This document shows, one piece after another, positions 977 through 26,289 of a DNA stretch of 64,000 bases. Position 1 is the stretch's first letter. Each line of letters opens with the position of its first letter. The stretch lies in assembly GCF_054482525.1 (NCBI RefSeq), contig NZ_CM137006.1; one strand, 5' to 3'. The translations under genes and the position numbers were made by a program. A model generated the notes under the pieces. It was given only the letters and a program-made list of their open reading frames with translations. It did not search any database and was not told the origin of the DNA.

Positions 977-1097
977 TGGTGGGTCGTGCAGGATGACTCG
1001 CTTCGCTCGCCCTTCGGGCCGTCGCCGCGAGCGGCTCCGTTGTTTCGCTGCGCTCAACTCGAACCTGCTGCAGGTTCGAATCTTTGAGTATCGCAGA
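977..1097 (-). repeat. tRNA-Lys 3'-end fragment (18 nt) plus associated ~100 bp repeat unit, copy A
   Basis: TGGTGGGTCGTGCAGGAT matches the 3' end of the adjacent tRNA-Lys genes, then diverges into GATGACTCGCTTCGCTCGCCCTTCGGGCCG, a sequence shared with copies B and C. Confidence 0.6.
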
Positions 1098-1101
1098 TAG
1101 C

Positions 1102-1128
1102 AAAAAAGCGCCTTTAGGGCGCTTTTTT
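1102..1128 (-). terminator. Rho-independent terminator of the lysT tRNA operon (proximal copy)
   Basis: AAAAAAGCGCCTTTAGGGCGCTTTTTT hairpin immediately 3' of the last tRNA on the minus strand. Confidence 0.6.
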
Positions 1129-1132
1129 ACAT

Positions 1133-1208
1133 TGGTGGGTCGTGCAGGATTCGAACCTGCGACCAATTGATTAAAAGTCAACTGCTCTACCAACTGAGCT
1201 AACGACCC
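1133..1208 (-). tRNA. lysQ: tRNA-Lys (anticodon UUU)
   Basis: 76-nt reverse complement matches canonical E. coli tRNA-Lys (GGGTCGTTAGCTCAGTTGGTAGAGCAGTTGACTTTTAATCAATTGGTCGCAGGTTCGAATCCTGCACGACCCACCA). Confidence 0.95.
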
Positions 1209-1241
1209 CTTGCGGGATTATGCTGCTTTAATCATTCAGGA

Positions 1242-1317
1242 TGGTGGGTCGTGCAGGATTCGAACCTGCGACCAATTGATTAAAAGTCAACTGCTCTACC
1301 AACTGAGCTAACGACCC
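1242..1317 (-). tRNA. lysZ: tRNA-Lys (UUU)
   Basis: Identical 76-nt tRNA-Lys sequence on minus strand. Confidence 0.95.
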
Positions 1318-1365
1318 ATACGGGTGTTACCTGAAAGATTTCTACTCGGAACCAATCTTTAAAAT

Positions 1366-1463
1366 TGGTGGGTCGTGCAGGATGACTCGCTTCGCTCGCC
1401 CTACGGGCCGTTGCTAGCGCAACGTTATCCTTCACGCTTAACATCTGAGTTTGATGTTAAAAT
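1366..1463 (-). repeat. tRNA-Lys 3'-end fragment plus associated repeat unit, copy B
   Basis: TGGTGGGTCGTGCAGGAT followed by GACTCGCTTCGCTCGCCCTACGGGCCGTTGCTAGCGCAACGTTATCCTTCACG, near-identical to copy C. Confidence 0.6.
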
Positions 1464-1539
1464 TGGTGGGTCGTGCAGGATTCGAACCTGCGACCAATTG
1501 ATTAAAAGTCAACTGCTCTACCAACTGAGCTAACGACCC
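1464..1539 (-). tRNA. lysY: tRNA-Lys (UUU)
   Basis: Identical 76-nt tRNA-Lys sequence. Confidence 0.95.
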
Positions 1540-1542
1540 GAG

Positions 1543-1618
1543 TGGTGGGTGATGACGGGATCGAACCGCCGACCCCCTCCTTGTAAGGGAGGTGCTCTCC
1601 CAGCTGAGCTAATCACCC
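1543..1618 (-). tRNA. valZ: tRNA-Val (UAC)
   Basis: Reverse complement matches E. coli tRNA-Val GGGTGATTAGCTCAGCTGGGAGAGCACCTCCCTTACAAGGAGGGGGTCGGCGGTTCGATCCCGTCATCACCCACCA. Confidence 0.95.
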
Positions 1619-1669
1619 GATACTGCGCTGGATACTACAAACTACTTCCACCGAACCCACCGTAATTAG

Positions 1670-1745
1670 TGGTGGGTCGTGCAGGATTCGAACCTGCGAC
1701 CAATTGATTAAAAGTCAACTGCTCTACCAACTGAGCTAACGACCC
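1670..1745 (-). tRNA. lysW: tRNA-Lys (UUU)
   Basis: Identical 76-nt tRNA-Lys sequence. Confidence 0.95.
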
Positions 1746-1747
1746 GG

Positions 1748-1823
1748 TGGTGGGTGATGACGGGATCGAACCGCCGACCCCCTCCTTGTAAGGGAGGTGC
1801 TCTCCCAGCTGAGCTAATCACCC
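1748..1823 (-). tRNA. valT: tRNA-Val (UAC)
   Basis: Identical 76-nt tRNA-Val sequence. Confidence 0.95.
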
Positions 1824-1858
1824 GATACTACGCTGGATACTACAACTAACTAGGTTAG

Positions 1859-1958
1859 TGGTGGGTCGTGCAGGATGACTCGACTTCGTCTCGCCCTTCG
1901 GGCCGTTGCTGACGCAACGTTATCCTTCACGTTTTACTACCGCGTCCACCTTAGCGAT
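1859..1958 (-). repeat. tRNA-Lys 3'-end fragment plus associated repeat unit, copy C
   Basis: TGGTGGGTCGTGCAGGAT followed by GACTCGACTTCGTCTCGCCCTTCGGGCCGTTGCTGACGCAACGTTATCCTTCACG. Confidence 0.6.
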
Positions 1959-2034
1959 TGGTGGGTCGTGCAGGATTCGAACCTGCGACCAATTGATTAA
2001 AAGTCAACTGCTCTACCAACTGAGCTAACGACCC
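1959..2034 (-). tRNA. lysT: tRNA-Lys (UUU), first gene of the operon
   Basis: Identical 76-nt tRNA-Lys sequence; most promoter-proximal position on the minus strand. Confidence 0.95.
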
Positions 2035-2198: not shown

Positions 2199-2990
2199 TT
2201 ACATCGCGTTAAGACGTTTTTGTGCCTGTTTAGCGCCATCAGTACCAGGGTATTTACTGATAACCTGCTGGTATACGGCTTTCGCTTTTGCGGTGTCACC
2301 TTTGTCCTGCATGATGACACCGACTTTAAACATCGCATCTGCAGCCTTTGGCGACTTCGGATAGTTTTTTACTACCGAAGCAAAATAGTACGCCGCATCA
2401 TCTTTTTTACCCTTGTTGTAGTTTAACTGACCCAGCCAATAATTGGCGTTTGGCAGGTAAGTTGAATCAGGGTAATTTTTGATGAAATTCTGAAATGCCA
2501 CCATTGCGTCATCCTGGCGGGATTTATCCTGCACCAGCGCAATTGCTGCATTGTAATCCGTGTTTGCATCGCCGCTTTTCACCGGCGCGCCAGCATTCGC
2601 AGTACCAGCATCAGCTGTCGGCGTCGTTGATGCCGCCGCACCGCTTTGATCACCGCTGGTTGATTGCGCCGCTGCACCACCGCTGCTGAGGCTGTCGATC
2701 TGCAACAGGATCTGCTTTTGCCGCTCCACGACCTGATTCAGTTGATACTGATTTTCCTGAATCTGACCGCGCAGGGAATCAATATCGGATTGATTATCAG
2801 AGAGTTGTTGCTGGAGTTGGGTTAAAAGCTGGCTGTGAGCATTTGAAATACGCTCAAGTTGAGTGACGCGGTCTTCGACCGAGCCTGAGCCGACACTACT
2901 GATTGGTGCCTGAGCAAAAGCGGCCCAGGGGGCCGCTATACCAACCAGTAACGACAGACTCAATAGTTGATGTCTGAAGTTACTGCTCAT
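2199..2990 (-). CDS. cpoB: Cell division coordinator CpoB (YbgF), TPR protein
   Basis: 263-aa ORF MSSNFRHQLLSLSLLVGIAAPWAAFA... with signal peptide, Gln-rich coiled coil and C-terminal TPR region; synteny after pal. Confidence 0.9.
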   Translation of the reverse strand: MSSNFRHQLLSLSLLVGIAAPWAAFAQAPISSVGSGSVEDRVTQLERISNAHSQLLTQLQQQLSDNQSDIDSLRGQIQENQYQLNQVVERQKQILLQIDSLSSGGAAAQSTSGDQSGAAASTTPTADAGTANAGAPVKSGDANTDYNAAIALVQDKSRQDDAMVAFQNFIKNYPDSTYLPNANYWLGQLNYNKGKKDDAAYYFASVVKNYPKSPKAADAMFKVGVIMQDKGDTAKAKAVYQQVISKYPGTDGAKQAQKRLNAM

Positions 2991-2999
2991 GCAATTCTC

Positions 3000-3545
<546 letters not shown>

Positions 3546-23371: not shown

Positions 23372-23974
23372 ATGGAAGCGCGAATTTCAACTGAACGGCA
23401 TGTGCAGCACCAGCAAAAATTGAAGGAACAGGTCGATACGCGCGTCGCGGCGGCGATAGAGAAAAAAGGGATCTTGATTGTTTTCACCGGCAACGGCAAA
23501 GGGAAATCCACTGCCGCGTTTGGTACTGTGACGCGCGCGGTGGGTCATGGCAAAACGGTGGGGGTTGCGCAGTACATCAAGGGGCAATGGGACAACGGCG
23601 AATACAACCTTCTCCAGCCGCTGGGGGTTGAGTTTCATATTATGGGAACCGGTTTTACCTGGGAGACACAGAACCGGCAAGCGGATATCGACGCGGCGAA
23701 AGAGGTCTGGTCGGAAAGCAAACGGATGCTGGCTGACAAGCGTTACGACTTAGTGGTGCTTGATGAGCTGACCTATATGCTGGCTTACCATTATCTGGAC
23801 ACCGAAGAAGTGATCGCTTCTCTGCAAAACCGCCCGGCACAACAAAGTGTCATTGTCACCGGACGCGGTTGCCACAGTCAGATATTAAAAATGGCGGATA
23901 CGGTCAGCGAAATCCGCCCCGTCAAACATGCTTTTGATAACGGCATTCAGGCGCAGCCGGGTATCGACTGGTAA
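23372..23974 (+). CDS. Cob(I)alamin adenosyltransferase paralog (CobA/BtuR family)
   Basis: 200 aa; GILIVFTGNGKGKSTAAFG P-loop and overall similarity to E. coli BtuR (IIVFTGNGKGKTTAAFG). Confidence 0.85.
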   Translation: MEARISTERHVQHQQKLKEQVDTRVAAAIEKKGILIVFTGNGKGKSTAAFGTVTRAVGHGKTVGVAQYIKGQWDNGEYNLLQPLGVEFHIMGTGFTWETQNRQADIDAAKEVWSESKRMLADKRYDLVVLDELTYMLAYHYLDTEEVIASLQNRPAQQSVIVTGRGCHSQILKMADTVSEIRPVKHAFDNGIQAQPGIDW

Positions 23975-23981
23975 TAAATAT

Positions 23982-24005
23982 CCTCCGGCATAGCCGGAGG
24001 TTTTT
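23982..24005 (+). terminator. Rho-independent terminator of the glutamate-catabolism operon
   Basis: CCTCCGGC-ATA-GCCGGAGG followed by TTTTT immediately after the adenosyltransferase stop. Confidence 0.7.
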
Positions 24006-24712
24006 CAAATGCGCCTATAAGGCTCTCTTACCAGCCGCGCCCTAACAGGCGCACACGATCTGACATTTGCATCCAACTTCGTTACTTACGGCCCGTAAAC
24101 GGGCTGCCCGGATAGGGAATCGATAACTGCTCTCCCATTTTATCCTCTTCAAGCTGGTGCTTTATGTAATCCTGTATCTTCGCCGTGTTCTTACCCACCG
24201 TATCGACGTAGTACCCTCTGCACCAGAACTCCCTGTTCCTGTATTTGAATTTCAAATCACCAAACTGCTCGTAAAGCATCAGACTGCTTTTCCCTTTCAG
24301 ATATCCCATAAAGCCGGATACGCTCATTTTGGGCGGGATCTCCACAAGCATATGGATATGATCTGCACAGCATTCAGCTTCCAGAATCCGTACACTTTTC
24401 CACTCACACAGCTTTCTCAAAATACTGCCTATTGCTCTACGCTTCTCTCTGTAGAACACCTGTCTTCGGTATTTTGGCGCAAAAACTATGTGATATTTAC
24501 AGTTCCATCGGGTGTGCGCTAAGCTCTTTTCGTTCCCCATTGGGACCCCCTTTTGATTTCTTGTTTGACACTTGCAGTTGCCAGACCGCAAGGTGTTTTA
24601 ACAAATCAAAAGGGGTTTTAATAACTGGCTTAAAGCTGAAAGCTTTCCGGAACCCCCAGCCTAGCTGGGGGTTTTCTGTGCACAATAACTGCGCCTGGCA
24701 TCCCGCCAGGCG
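24006..24712 (-). mobile_element. IS200-like element (IS200/IS605 family), boundaries approximate
   Basis: Contains a Y1-transposase gene, a perfect palindrome AACCCCCAGCCTAGCTGGGGGTT about 120 bp upstream of tnpA and a 13-bp inverted repeat sequestering the tnpA start region, as in IS200. Confidence 0.6.
24082..24540 (-). CDS. tnpA: IS200 transposase TnpA (HUH Y1 transposase)
   Basis: 152 aa MGNEKSLAHTRWNCKYHIVFAPKYRRQVFY...HIHMLVEIPPK... with HuH motif and catalytic Tyr-containing C-terminus. Confidence 0.9.
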   Translation of the reverse strand: MGNEKSLAHTRWNCKYHIVFAPKYRRQVFYREKRRAIGSILRKLCEWKSVRILEAECCADHIHMLVEIPPKMSVSGFMGYLKGKSSLMLYEQFGDLKFKYRNREFWCRGYYVDTVGKNTAKIQDYIKHQLEEDKMGEQLSIPYPGSPFTGRK

Positions 24713-24718
24713 CAGGTT

Positions 24719-25624
24719 TTACATCTCCTGCGGTACAACCGATTTCGCCAGCAACCATTCACGAAATTGCTGCAAGTGCGGTGAGTCAGACTTCTCTTCC
24801 TGCCACGTCATAATAAAACGATTACCGGTACGAATAGGCACATCACAGGGAATCACCATATCGCCACTATCCAAATCATGTTGAATAGCGAACCGTGGTA
24901 ACAGCGCCACGCCGAGATTAGAGCGCACGGCGGCAATCAGCATTGAAAGCAAATCGAAACGTGGTCCGTTGTTGACCAGCGGACTGCTAACGCCAGATAA
25001 GGCAAACCACTCTTCCCAGCCAGTAATACGGGTACTTTGATGCAGAAGTGGTAACTCTGTAAGCAGTTCTGCCACTGACAGTTTTTGATCGGACATTGCA
25101 AGCAAACTGCCGCTGCATACCGGCAAAATCTCCTCTTCAAAGAGATATTCTACTTCCGCCCAGGGCGCGCAAAAATTTTCGCGCATAATGACAGCATCGT
25201 ACTCCCGATTAAGAAAATCGCCGTTATTAGCTAAAGAGTGAATATTAACAATAATATCGGGATGTAACTTTGTGAATTCATGTAAATTTGGGATTAACCA
25301 GTGGGTACTAAACGTAGGATTCACGGCAAGTTCAATAACCTTAACTGTAGGTTGCCAGGTCATAATGGTATTGGTATCGCGTTCCAGCTTATTTAATGTT
25401 TCTTTTACTATCCCCAGGTAATACTTCCCTGCATCATTAAGAAAAATACGTTTTTTAGAGTGTGAAAATAACGGAGTATGTAAAAATTCCTCCAGCGCAC
25501 TCACTTGTCTGAATACTGCACTTTGGGTTAACGCTAACTCCTCTGCCGCTCTGGTATAACTTTCATGACGTGCGACGACCTCAAAAGTCACCAGCAGTTC
25601 CGTTTTAGGTATTTTTCCTCGCAT
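24719..25624 (-). CDS. LysR-family transcriptional regulator
   Basis: 301 aa; N-terminal HTH (TFEVVARHESYTRAAEELALTQSAVFRQVSALEE) and LysR substrate-binding domain. Confidence 0.85.
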   Translation of the reverse strand: MRGKIPKTELLVTFEVVARHESYTRAAEELALTQSAVFRQVSALEEFLHTPLFSHSKKRIFLNDAGKYYLGIVKETLNKLERDTNTIMTWQPTVKVIELAVNPTFSTHWLIPNLHEFTKLHPDIIVNIHSLANNGDFLNREYDAVIMRENFCAPWAEVEYLFEEEILPVCSGSLLAMSDQKLSVAELLTELPLLHQSTRITGWEEWFALSGVSSPLVNNGPRFDLLSMLIAAVRSNLGVALLPRFAIQHDLDSGDMVIPCDVPIRTGNRFIMTWQEEKSDSPHLQQFREWLLAKSVVPQEM

Positions 25625-26190
25625 AATGCCGTCCCTTAAAAATAGTTTAAACCATCAAAAATACATTACTTATTACGAAGTAATGGTAACCAAAGCAGCA
25701 ATAAATAATTTATAAGAATCATGATTGACATTTATAACCCAGTAAGCCTGGCGTGACAAATATCTTAATCAGATAATAATAATCCGAAAAGCACAGCGCC
25801 TTTCGAATTATCCGGAATCACATTAAGTGAAAATTATTAAATTGATATCATTTATCATATCTGTGGATATTATGATAAACAATCAACAAAGATTTTATTT
25901 TTGATTTATAGCATATCCCTCTAAGAATTTTTGCGATGCTGCAATATCCGGGGTAAAGACCCGATCCTGGCTGACAAATGGCACGACTTGACGATAAGCG
26001 GTGAACATCGCTTTTGTTGATTTACTTAACGCTACGGTCAAACGCTGGGAAGCCAGTGCATCAGGTAACGATTCGAAATTCGCCGTCGTTCTTATTCGTG
26101 GCTTGCGGTCGGTTGCGGCAATCCACAGTGGCTGTGGTCATGCAGTCAAGCCAGCGGTCAGATTTCGACCGTGGTTAACATTTAAGGCAT

Positions 26191-26289
26191 AAAAAAGGCC
26201 ATCATACGATGGCCAACCATGTCGAAACCGACAGCCCTTCGCCATTCCTGTAGAGGGAAGCGGCGAGGGCTATTTCTTATTACAGATAT
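26191..26289 (-). ncRNA. sdhX: sucD 3'UTR-derived sRNA SdhX (RybD) with intrinsic terminator
   Basis: About 100 nt between sucD stop and hairpin GGCCATCGTATGATGGCC + U6 on the minus strand; position matches the known SdhX locus. Sequence identity not checked. Confidence 0.5.

Follow-up and report, generated by a model that had tools for sequence, protein, structure and literature searches.

The closest described relative of the locus studied here is the E. coli O157:H7 gene cluster that includes the FumD mesaconase, in which a LysR-type regulator (LTTR) is already listed (Kronen and Berg 2015, PMC4682846, Fig. 5 legend). For the insertion sequence next to it, the closest descriptions come from Salmonella, where the length of IS200 is quoted as 707 bp (PMC4513863), compared with 711 bp here, and where RNAs derived from the IS200 5'UTR are known to regulate genes (PMC5435999). 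According to a preprint, terminator-like sequences are enriched in the DNA upstream of IS200/IS605 elements (10.1101/2025.07.22.666184).

The window, the whole 64,000-nt stretch of DNA that was analysed, is from the chromosome of E. coli PCN033. It holds cobO, IS200C and a LysR gene in that order, then gene relics, then sucD. According to the RefSeq annotation, glmS-glmL-glmE-mal-atuA-DUF4387-gltP-fumD-cobO and the LTTR are co-localised in one cluster. The locus is made of two ordinary features side by side, an IS200C copy at its usual kind of target and the LTTR of a known cluster. We consider it probable that the complete picture is an IS200C copy placed after a shared terminator, an LTTR resident in the glm cluster and most likely acting on a box upstream of glmS, and the scar of a ~9.7-kb deletion. 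The main features were:

23372–23974, plus strand: cobO, cob(I)yrinic acid a,c-diamide adenosyltransferase; final gene in the operon for glutamate fermentation (RefSeq)
23973–24683, minus strand: IS200C, 711 bp (RefSeq name; ends from empty-site comparison)
24689–24715, unstranded: native bidirectional intrinsic terminator, common to cobO (plus strand) and the LysR gene (minus strand)
24719–25624, minus strand: LysR-type regulator, 301 aa, GcvA-like, putative regulator of the glutamate-fermentation cluster (Pfam, synteny)
26197–26214, minus strand: sucD terminator, where the core genome restarts (terminator scan)

The original prediction had recognized an IS200-like element, and its transposase confirmed this (Pfam Y1_Tnp; NCBIfam transpos_IS200, NF033573, 147.7 bits vs a cutoff of 55, 1.9e-43). 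Its start at 24006 was misplaced. In empty-site genomes, e.g., GF43, cobO-TAATAA is followed at once by the hairpin at 24689–24715, so the inserted block is the 711 bp between 23973 and 24683. On the cobO side, the element had been cut 33 bp short, and two hairpins were therefore assigned to the wrong owners. The supposed operon terminator at 23982–24000 lies within the IS, is its right-end hairpin and is missing in empty-site genomes. The boundary hairpin, placed at 24689–24713, is indeed strong (stem of 11–12 bp, -25.0 and -24.4 kcal/mol), but it is the native bidirectional terminator and not an IS by-product, being present past the cobO stop in empty-site genomes as well. The chief value of these results is a correct annotation, with an IS 33 bp longer and an apparent operon terminator that belongs to it. 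The parts of the element and its target were:

23982–24000, unstranded: IS200 right-end subterminal hairpin (-15.5 kcal/mol, z -3.85)
24082–24540, minus strand: tnpA, 152-aa Y1 (HUH) transposase (PF01797, 3.8e-38; WP_000526135.1)
24550–24673, minus strand: IS200 left end plus tnpA 5'UTR (Rfam STnc490 RF01405, 146 bits; fold)
24651–24673, minus strand: IS200 left-end terminator hairpin (fold; anatomy as in PMC4513863)
24684–24688, minus strand: TTATT, the target pentanucleotide; T-rich tail of the terminator as read on the LysR strand, abutted by the IS left end

Beyond tnpA, no ORF in 23973–24683 matched any family. In tnpA orientation, the element starts with GTGCACAGAAAACCCCC and finishes with GGAGGATATTTATT. 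Its ends, GTGCACAG... and ...ATATTTATT, are not mutual inverted repeats, and both have subterminal hairpins. The right-end hairpin scored terminator-like on both strands in the scan, with TTTTT next on the plus strand. All 711 positions of the PCN033 element were identical to copies from four other strains. In the PCN033 record, tnpA of this one copy is on the plus strand, at 0.807 Mb; assuming that the record has the K-12 orientation (sdh-suc on the plus strand, right replichore), the lagging-strand template would be the top strand, and this concerns a single copy.

A 5-bp ambiguity in the end placement (AATAA) was settled by comparing 16 copies at 13 sites. The right end was constant, ...GGAGGATATTTATT whatever the left flank, with TTATT in 15 of the 16 copies (sole exception L061, TTTGTT), while the left flanks varied (TTATT, TAATT, TTTTT, TTCTT, TTGTT). 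For this reason, we rejected both the alternative register 23978–24688 and a 5-bp target duplication as the origin of the AATAA at the two junctions; insertion took place without target duplication, as shown by the empty site and the 16 copies compared.

At all 13 distinct sites, which were drawn from a BLAST list and are not a census, the left end directly followed five T-rich nucleotides, the last two being TT, at the base of a hairpin. These hairpins ranged from -13.9 to -24.4 kcal/mol over the 16 copies, each with a T-run. The generic IS200C target consists of a GC-rich hairpin and then a T-run with TT at its end. Two sites had been used twice. Strain Ch1 carried a distinct IS200 variant (23/711 mismatches) at the same cobO/lysR nucleotide and in the same orientation, in flanks 98.7–100% identical to those of PCN033, and the sbcB/plaP terminator had two insertion positions, 3 nt apart. 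In single-stranded form, a GC hairpin plus T-run would resemble the right end of IS200 itself (hairpin, then ATATTTATT). TnpA would then take terminators for pseudo-right-ends, and would attach the left end precisely past the T-run. We offer this use of intrinsic terminators as a structural target only tentatively. It would explain the repeated independent insertions at cobO/lysR and sbcB/plaP and, if true, convergent gene pairs would offer IS200 safe harbours that are transcriptionally silent. The nucleotide-level placement after T-tracts could provide the basis for a simple in vitro test of Y1 transposase targets.

At this locus, IS200C entered the 33-bp gap between the convergent cobO and LysR gene, immediately 3' of TTATT, the LysR-strand tail of the shared bidirectional terminator. 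The LysR gene retains its own terminator and cobO its stop codon, the TAA being restored by one flank T plus the IS-terminal AA, as seen in the junction sequences. The operon transcript would now run into the IS right-end hairpin followed by UUUUU, where the operon terminator formerly stood, and the left-end hairpin would stop read-through into tnpA. On sequence evidence, the insertion is probably neutral. It is very improbable that it is adaptive, uncoupling the convergent units or altering cobO/LysR expression through IS-borne RNAs (tnpA 5'UTR sRNA, art200). The independent double occupation of the cobO/lysR site and the gene regulation by IS200 5'UTR-derived RNAs known in Salmonella would fit such a role. 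However, an IS was found at this site in only 4 of 5426 E. coli genomes, and the coding regions of cobO and the LysR gene were kept, each with a terminator. Recurrence at the site is explained by target specificity, all 13 sites being terminators.

The LysR gene had been called an orphan. It is intact, with HTH_1 (PF00126, 7.3e-18) and LysR_substrate (PF03466, 4.2e-28) domains. Its best NCBIfam match was the GcvA subfamily (PRK11139), at 221.6 bits; this falls under the cutoff of 288, so the protein is not GcvA, its closest solved relative (PDB 8y6u, 6.8e-43). In 34 of 38 species-level loci, the gene faced cobO in convergent orientation where the glm-mal-fumD-cobO cluster ends. These loci were from about eight genera (Citrobacter, Salmonella, Klebsiella, Enterobacter, Lelliottia, Pluralibacter, Buttiauxella and Escherichia), across which the orthologues had 80–93% amino-acid identity. 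No other regulator gene was common to all cluster versions, a PocR/AraC gene being found only in Salmonella, Citrobacter and Klebsiella. Homology with K-12-type genomes began at window position 26183, with none before, signifying that the LysR gene belongs to the island. Taken with its listing in the O157:H7 cluster, the supposed orphan is a conserved LTTR of a published catabolic cluster, the putative resident regulator of the enterobacterial methylaspartate/mesaconate pathway of glutamate fermentation.

LTTRs are usually divergent from their target gene, an arrangement that is typical but not obligatory. As the original prediction stated, no intact divergent gene was found next to the LysR gene within the window, so the typical arrangement is not seen here; the gene was also absent from island-free (K-12-type) genomes. 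The convergent orientation to cobO, seen in every genus covered, and the distant placement are atypical for LTTRs and speak against control of the operon.

Two candidate operator sites were recognized:

13782–13818, plus strand: block before glmS, invariant; candidate site for LTTR recognition at the operon promoter (phylogenetic footprint)
25636–25650, unstranded: candidate autoregulatory LTTR box TTAAAAATAGTTTAA (TTAA-N7-TTAA), 12–26 nt upstream of the LysR start codon

The glmS block holds a TTGA-N7-TCAA (T-N11-A) dyad at 13799–13813, TTGAAAATAGATCAA, which the footprint found invariant in five genera (Escherichia, Klebsiella, Citrobacter, Lelliottia and Buttiauxella). It is the only copy on the island, the 19-mer being unique within the window at ≤3 mismatches. 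A search of the LysR upstream region for T-N11-A boxes gave no exact TTGA-N7-TCAA, the remaining window matches lying in tRNA genes and elsewhere, but it gave the candidate at 25636–25650. This matches the glmS box at 12/15 positions, with a chance P of about 0.05–0.06 for a match that good (shuffles, 276-bp AT-rich region); the degenerate motif was moreover defined post hoc from these two sites themselves. The box was preserved as TTAAACTATTTTTGT in Citrobacter and others, and E. coli form A had no box upstream of the LysR gene. Between E. coli and the other genera, only the last ~40 nt of the LysR upstream region aligned.

Together, the glmS box and its 12/15 copy suggest that the LTTR controls the operon. 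It would most likely act over ~11 kb on the TTGA-N7-TCAA box, with the box centre ~56 nt before the putative start site, and would probably repress itself via the related box before its own start codon. The regulator would presumably bind these candidate boxes and have an effector. Regulation of the island was one of two alternatives in the original prediction, and it is the better supported one. We consider it unlikely that a global regulator such as IHF or a member of the FNR/CRP family binds the glmS block, with the LTTR acting elsewhere or on another cluster promoter. Glutamate fermentation is anaerobic, and the block has half-sites, ATCAATTGC and TTGA...TCAA, that recall sequences of the IHF/FNR type. 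Yet its spacing is N7, which fits T-N11-A, vs N4 in TTGAT-N4-ATCAA of FNR, and a related sequence is present at the LysR gene's own promoter. Positions 13799–13813 offer a concrete candidate operator for an uncharacterised glutamate-fermentation regulator in pathogenic E. coli.

Between the LysR gene and sucD, the following segments were found:

25625–25894, unstranded: AT-rich LysR upstream region, 95% identical to L003 11085–12433
25895–26086, minus strand: hutH-like (HAL/PAL family) ammonia-lyase relic (tblastn; blastn vs strain LR-60)
26092–26192, plus strand: rtcB relics, an internal fragment plus the last 15 codons (blastn with L003 21919–21975 and 22151 onward; tblastn)

The AT-rich region was as predicted (GC 0.27–0.33 over 25600–25900), but it is followed by relics at 25895–26192 and not by the sucD 3' region. 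The hutH-like relic comprises aa 511–556 plus the stop codon (25895–26035; tblastn 89%, 8.9e-25), with a second piece, aa 378–397, fused on (26027–26086; tblastn 90%, 2.9e-7). The ORF at 26001–26192 corresponds to rtcB relics by tblastn. A reading of 25920–26190 as the mngR 3' end was rejected, given the start of K-12 homology and the lack of a Pfam match in this ORF. No family was matched in the sucD 3'UTR by an Rfam scan at gathering thresholds.

In the long island form, the 25625–25894 region separates the hutH-like stop codon from the LysR gene; in 144 genomes, the hut operon lay upstream of this gene and ended 270 bp before it. Intact rtcB, found in L003 and L055, was the divergent neighbour of the LysR gene, 589 bp off, in up to ~180 E. 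coli genomes. A hut-less short form occurred in 835 genomes, with a full-length LysR ORF. The island exists in at least three forms, one with rtcB only, one with hut plus rtcB and one with relics. The second couples the hut operon (histidine to glutamate) to glutamate-fermentation genes, and the PCN033 island is a decayed derivative of the hut-containing form. The LysR-sucD interval is the scar of a ~9.7-kb deletion, by which the hut operon and most of rtcB were lost from a longer ancestral island. The second alternative of the original prediction, a remnant of a deleted divergon, held insofar as upstream DNA was deleted and rtcB is divergent elsewhere. It failed in that the main lost block is the co-directional hut operon, and in that, in other genera, the regulator has neither hut nor rtcB beside it.

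The relics directly upstream of the LysR gene, together with the genomes having divergent rtcB or the adjoining hut operon, could mean that the gene is a functionless leftover, either the surviving half of a divergent lysR–rtcB pair or a regulator that served the lost hut operon, its target gone from this strain. The full-length ORF in the 835 short-form genomes makes this improbable, as do the orthologues (80–88% identity) that go with the glm cluster in genera without hut or rtcB there. Upstream of hutU in the long form, there was no related box, the best match to the glmS box being only 11/15, and RtcB systems usually have RtcR, rather than an LTTR, as their regulator.

As laid out in PMC4682846, the O157:H7 cluster has the same order as in PCN033 (glmS, glmL/mutL, glmE, mal, DUF1446/AtuA, gltP, fumD, cobA/cobO, LTTR) and, as there, lies between cydA and sucD on the chromosome. 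PCN033 differs by the extra IS200 copy, and in its account of the cluster PMC4682846 makes no mention of hutH/rtcB relics or a longer, hut-containing island form. With the GcvA/DsdC/AmpR branch, the regulator has in common HTH_1 plus a substrate-binding domain, and its candidate site is likewise a T-N11-A dyad. Unlike that branch, it points towards the operon's final gene, in convergent orientation, and is ~11 kb from its presumed target promoter. IS200C shows nothing structurally different from IS200 of Salmonella/E. coli and IS1541 of Yersinia (IS200/IS605 family, IS200 group). They share a single Y1 HUH tnpA, the lack of terminal inverted repeats and of target duplication, a left-end terminator hairpin, an STnc490-type 5'UTR stem-loop and a right-end hairpin. 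Its placement strictly after terminator T-tracts (13 of 13 sites) is a sharper pattern than the preprint's general "terminator-like" (10.1101/2025.07.22.666184).

The window matched the chromosome of Escherichia coli PCN033 at 100%. In the cydAB-sucD interval, where K-12 has mngR-mngAB, this strain carries an island with the following gene order in the RefSeq annotation:

Plus strand: two hypothetical genes, glmS, glmL, glmE (glutamate mutase), methylaspartate ammonia-lyase, an AtuA-like gene, DUF4387, a dicarboxylate/amino-acid symporter, class I fumarate hydratase, cobO (23372-23974)
Minus strand, after cobO: tnpA of an IS200 element, here IS200C (24082-24540), then a LysR-type regulator gene (24719-25624)

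The island is the glutamate-fermentation (methylaspartate/mesaconate) cluster known from E. coli O157:H7, whose class I fumarase was characterised as mesaconase FumD (Kronen and Berg 2015, PMC4682846); the legend to Fig. 5 of that paper counts this LysR-type regulator among the cluster genes. The two hypothetical genes (11936-13383; 314 and 140 aa) were separated from glmS by 550 bp of very AT-rich DNA, and a Pfam scan of the 314-aa protein gave no match. In the type strain Salmonella enterica subsp. arizonae CCUG 6322T, glmE (glutamate mutase E subunit; L045 17733-19175) was interrupted by an in-frame stop near codon 24, and the cluster may therefore be inactivated there. Two further regions of the window (977-2034 and 2961-3099) hold a cluster of seven tRNA genes with RtT repeats between them, and the CpoB/ybgF RNA thermometer; both are ordinary for the core genome.

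Among 5426 complete E. coli genomes only 4 had the IS at the cobO/LysR site, and many others had the same flanks without it. At the empty site of strain GF43 (...gactggTAATAActgcgcctggcatcccgccaggcgcaggttttacat...), a hairpin came immediately after the cobO stop codon, the LysR stop codon lay just beyond it, and the two genes were 33 bp apart. By comparison, the inserted block measured 711 bp, with the 5-bp AATAA at each junction. We compared 16 IS200C copies from 13 distinct sites, read in tnpA orientation. All started with GTGCACAG(A/G)AAACCCC, and 15 ended in GGAGGATATTTATT, the exception (L061) having TTTGTT. The 5 nt preceding the left end differed by site (TTATT, TAATT, TTTTT, TTCTT, TTGTT). 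With a nearly constant right end and a variable left flank, TTATT was therefore assigned to the IS right end, ruling out a target duplication. The cobO stop codon was preserved because the terminal IS bases equal the target bases. The original prediction of an IS200-like element was right in kind, this being a canonical IS200, but off in registration: the comparisons with empty sites and among copies place the element at 23973-24683, without target duplication.

The hairpins at the element and its border were:

23982-24000, IS200 right-end hairpin, CCTCCGGCATAGCCGGAGG then TTTTT, absent from empty sites
24651-24673, IS left-end hairpin, matching Rfam STnc490 together with the 5'UTR (146 bits)
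24689-24715, native terminator hairpin, terminator-like on both strands (-25.0 kcal/mol on plus, -24.4 on minus)

The first of these had been taken for the operon terminator and belongs to the IS, while the last, described as a feature of the IS/LysR boundary, is native and present at the empty site. The transposase matched Y1_Tnp profiles and, like the left-end hairpin and 5'UTR, is canonical. The left end and 5'UTR agree with the published IS200 anatomy, which comprises a terminator (nt 12-34), a stem-loop (nt 69-138) and art200, an antisense RNA (PMC4513863). The Rfam STnc490 match (24550-24673, minus strand; IS nt 11-134) was on the tnpA-sense strand, whereas STnc490/art200 is antisense to the tnpA 5'UTR (Ellis et al. 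2015); the model strand may therefore differ from that of the sRNA.

After insertion, the LysR gene would keep its stop codon and own terminator, and the left-end hairpin would stop LysR read-through into tnpA. For the operon transcript, the right-end hairpin with UUUUU (-15.5 kcal/mol) would replace the native hairpin. Nothing points to a phenotype of the insertion.

The LysR-type gene was intact (301 aa, HTH_1 and LysR_substrate domains) and fell in the GcvA/DsdC/AmpR branch, but its score stayed below the GcvA family cutoff. Its best solved relative was GcvA (8y6u). The regulator is island-borne: K-12-type genomes matched the region only from 26183. Among 38 orthologue loci from species-representative genomes, 34 had the orthologue (80-93% identity) convergent with cobO at the cluster end. 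They came from Citrobacter spp., Salmonella enterica arizonae and diarizonae, Klebsiella oxytoca, K. grimontii, K. michiganensis, Enterobacter, Lelliottia, Pluralibacter, Buttiauxella and other Escherichia. In species-level loci sucD often adjoined the cluster, and those loci of Klebsiella and Citrobacter that were examined had cydA beside it as well. On its upstream side, the regulator had a PocR/AraC regulator and a divergent uroporphyrinogen methyltransferase in Citrobacter, the PocR/AraC gene only in Salmonella and Klebsiella, and unrelated genes in Lelliottia, Enterobacter and Buttiauxella. These neighbours vary across genera, and the LysR-type gene is thus the sole regulator shared by every version of the cluster.

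In Lelliottia (L053 2855-4145) and Buttiauxella (L054 2719-4166), the cluster was not between cydA and sucD, and glmS was divergent from a small B12-related operon (tetrapyrrole methylase, aminotransferase, GHMP kinase; in Lelliottia only, a siroheme-synthase-like NAD_binding_7 protein).

A long island form was found in 144 of 5426 E. coli genomes, e.g., LR-60 (L003 12296-22192). Its order was sucD, rtcB (plus strand) and then, all on the minus strand, hutU, a permease, hutD, hutI, hutG and a HAL-family lyase (hutH-like), whose 3' end lies 270 bp upstream of the regulator gene. This form physically joins histidine-to-glutamate (hut) genes to the glutamate-fermentation cluster; E. coli is usually taken to lack hut. 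The MAG labelled Citrobacter sp. HRGM_Genome_0066 had one contig (contig 67, L012) 97-99% identical to the long form and another (L017) with a Citrobacter-type cluster (87%); it is probably a mixture. What remains in the window is a pseudogene scar on the upstream side of the LysR gene:

25895-26035, HAL relic, codons 511-556 plus stop (89% identity)
26027-26086, HAL relic, codons 378-397
26092-26148, rtcB internal fragment
26145-26189, last 15 codons of rtcB

The PCN033 form, whose junction occurred in 835 genomes, therefore derives from the long form by deletion. In a third form, present in up to about 180 genomes (e.g., E. coli MFDS1019527, L055 2614-5506), rtcB is intact and transcribed divergently from the LysR gene; the 589 bp between the two genes are unrelated DNA, with no match in the window or in the long form. 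The suggestion that the regulator is the remnant of a deleted divergon is borne out as far as a deletion occurred, but outside Escherichia neither hut nor rtcB was found as its companion.

We aligned 420 bp upstream of glmS from seven sequences (three Escherichia, Klebsiella, Citrobacter, Lelliottia, Buttiauxella). Amid poorly conserved AT-rich DNA there was one long near-invariant block, with the core TGAAAATAGATCAATTG identical in all seven:

13782-13818, conserved block upstream of glmS, ATTTCCCGAAAGACATTTTGAAAATAGATCAATTGC in the window

Inside it, TTGA-N7-TCAA (13799-13813) has the T-N11-A dyad format. A conserved GACACTCC...TATTAA, which could be a -10 region, follows about 45 nt downstream. 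The closest other island match to the glmS box (TTAAAAATAGTTTAA, 25636-25650, 12/15 identical) was upstream of the LysR gene, where a search for T-N11-A boxes had originally been proposed; about 5-6% of shuffled versions of this 276-bp region contained an equally good match by chance. It lies 12-26 nt upstream of the start codon, the usual position of LysR-type autorepression sites. In Citrobacter and related loci it was kept as TTAAACTATTTTTGT at the equivalent position, in otherwise unalignable DNA. No comparable site was found upstream of hutU in the long form. We take the candidate boxes as a suggestive but not conclusive sign that the LysR-type regulator controls the glm promoter as well as its own.

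At all 13 sites, the IS200C left end was directly preceded by a GC-rich hairpin (RNAfold -13.9 to -24.4 kcal/mol) and its T-rich tail, which ended in TT; together they form the intrinsic terminator of the gene co-oriented with tnpA. The flanking genes converged on the IS wherever both were annotated. Strain Ch1 carried an IS200 variant (23/711 differences) at the identical nucleotide and orientation of the cobO/lysR site, with flanks 98.7-100% identical to the window; IS200 has used this site twice. At the sbcB/plaP terminator, insertions in two strains were 3 nt apart. Copies at four further loci, all in different strains from PCN033, agreed with the window copy at 711/711 positions, indicating a recently active element. 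The top strand of the window copy appears to be on the lagging-strand template, assuming K-12-like numbering of PCN033, for this one copy.

The terminator association is already known in outline, since a 2025-26 preprint (10.1101/2025.07.22.666184) reports terminator-like sequences enriched upstream of ISs, most strongly IS200/IS605. Overall, the observation behind the original prediction was real, though mis-registered, and its interpretation partly right: this is a standard IS200 at the type of site that is standard for it, next to the as yet uncharacterised regulator resident in a published catabolic island. The novelty is limited to one new IS200 insertion instance and some annotation-level insights. 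IS608 and ISDra2 enter single-stranded DNA on the 3' side of a short target; by analogy, the corresponding target of IS200C would be the T-rich pentanucleotide at the hairpin foot.
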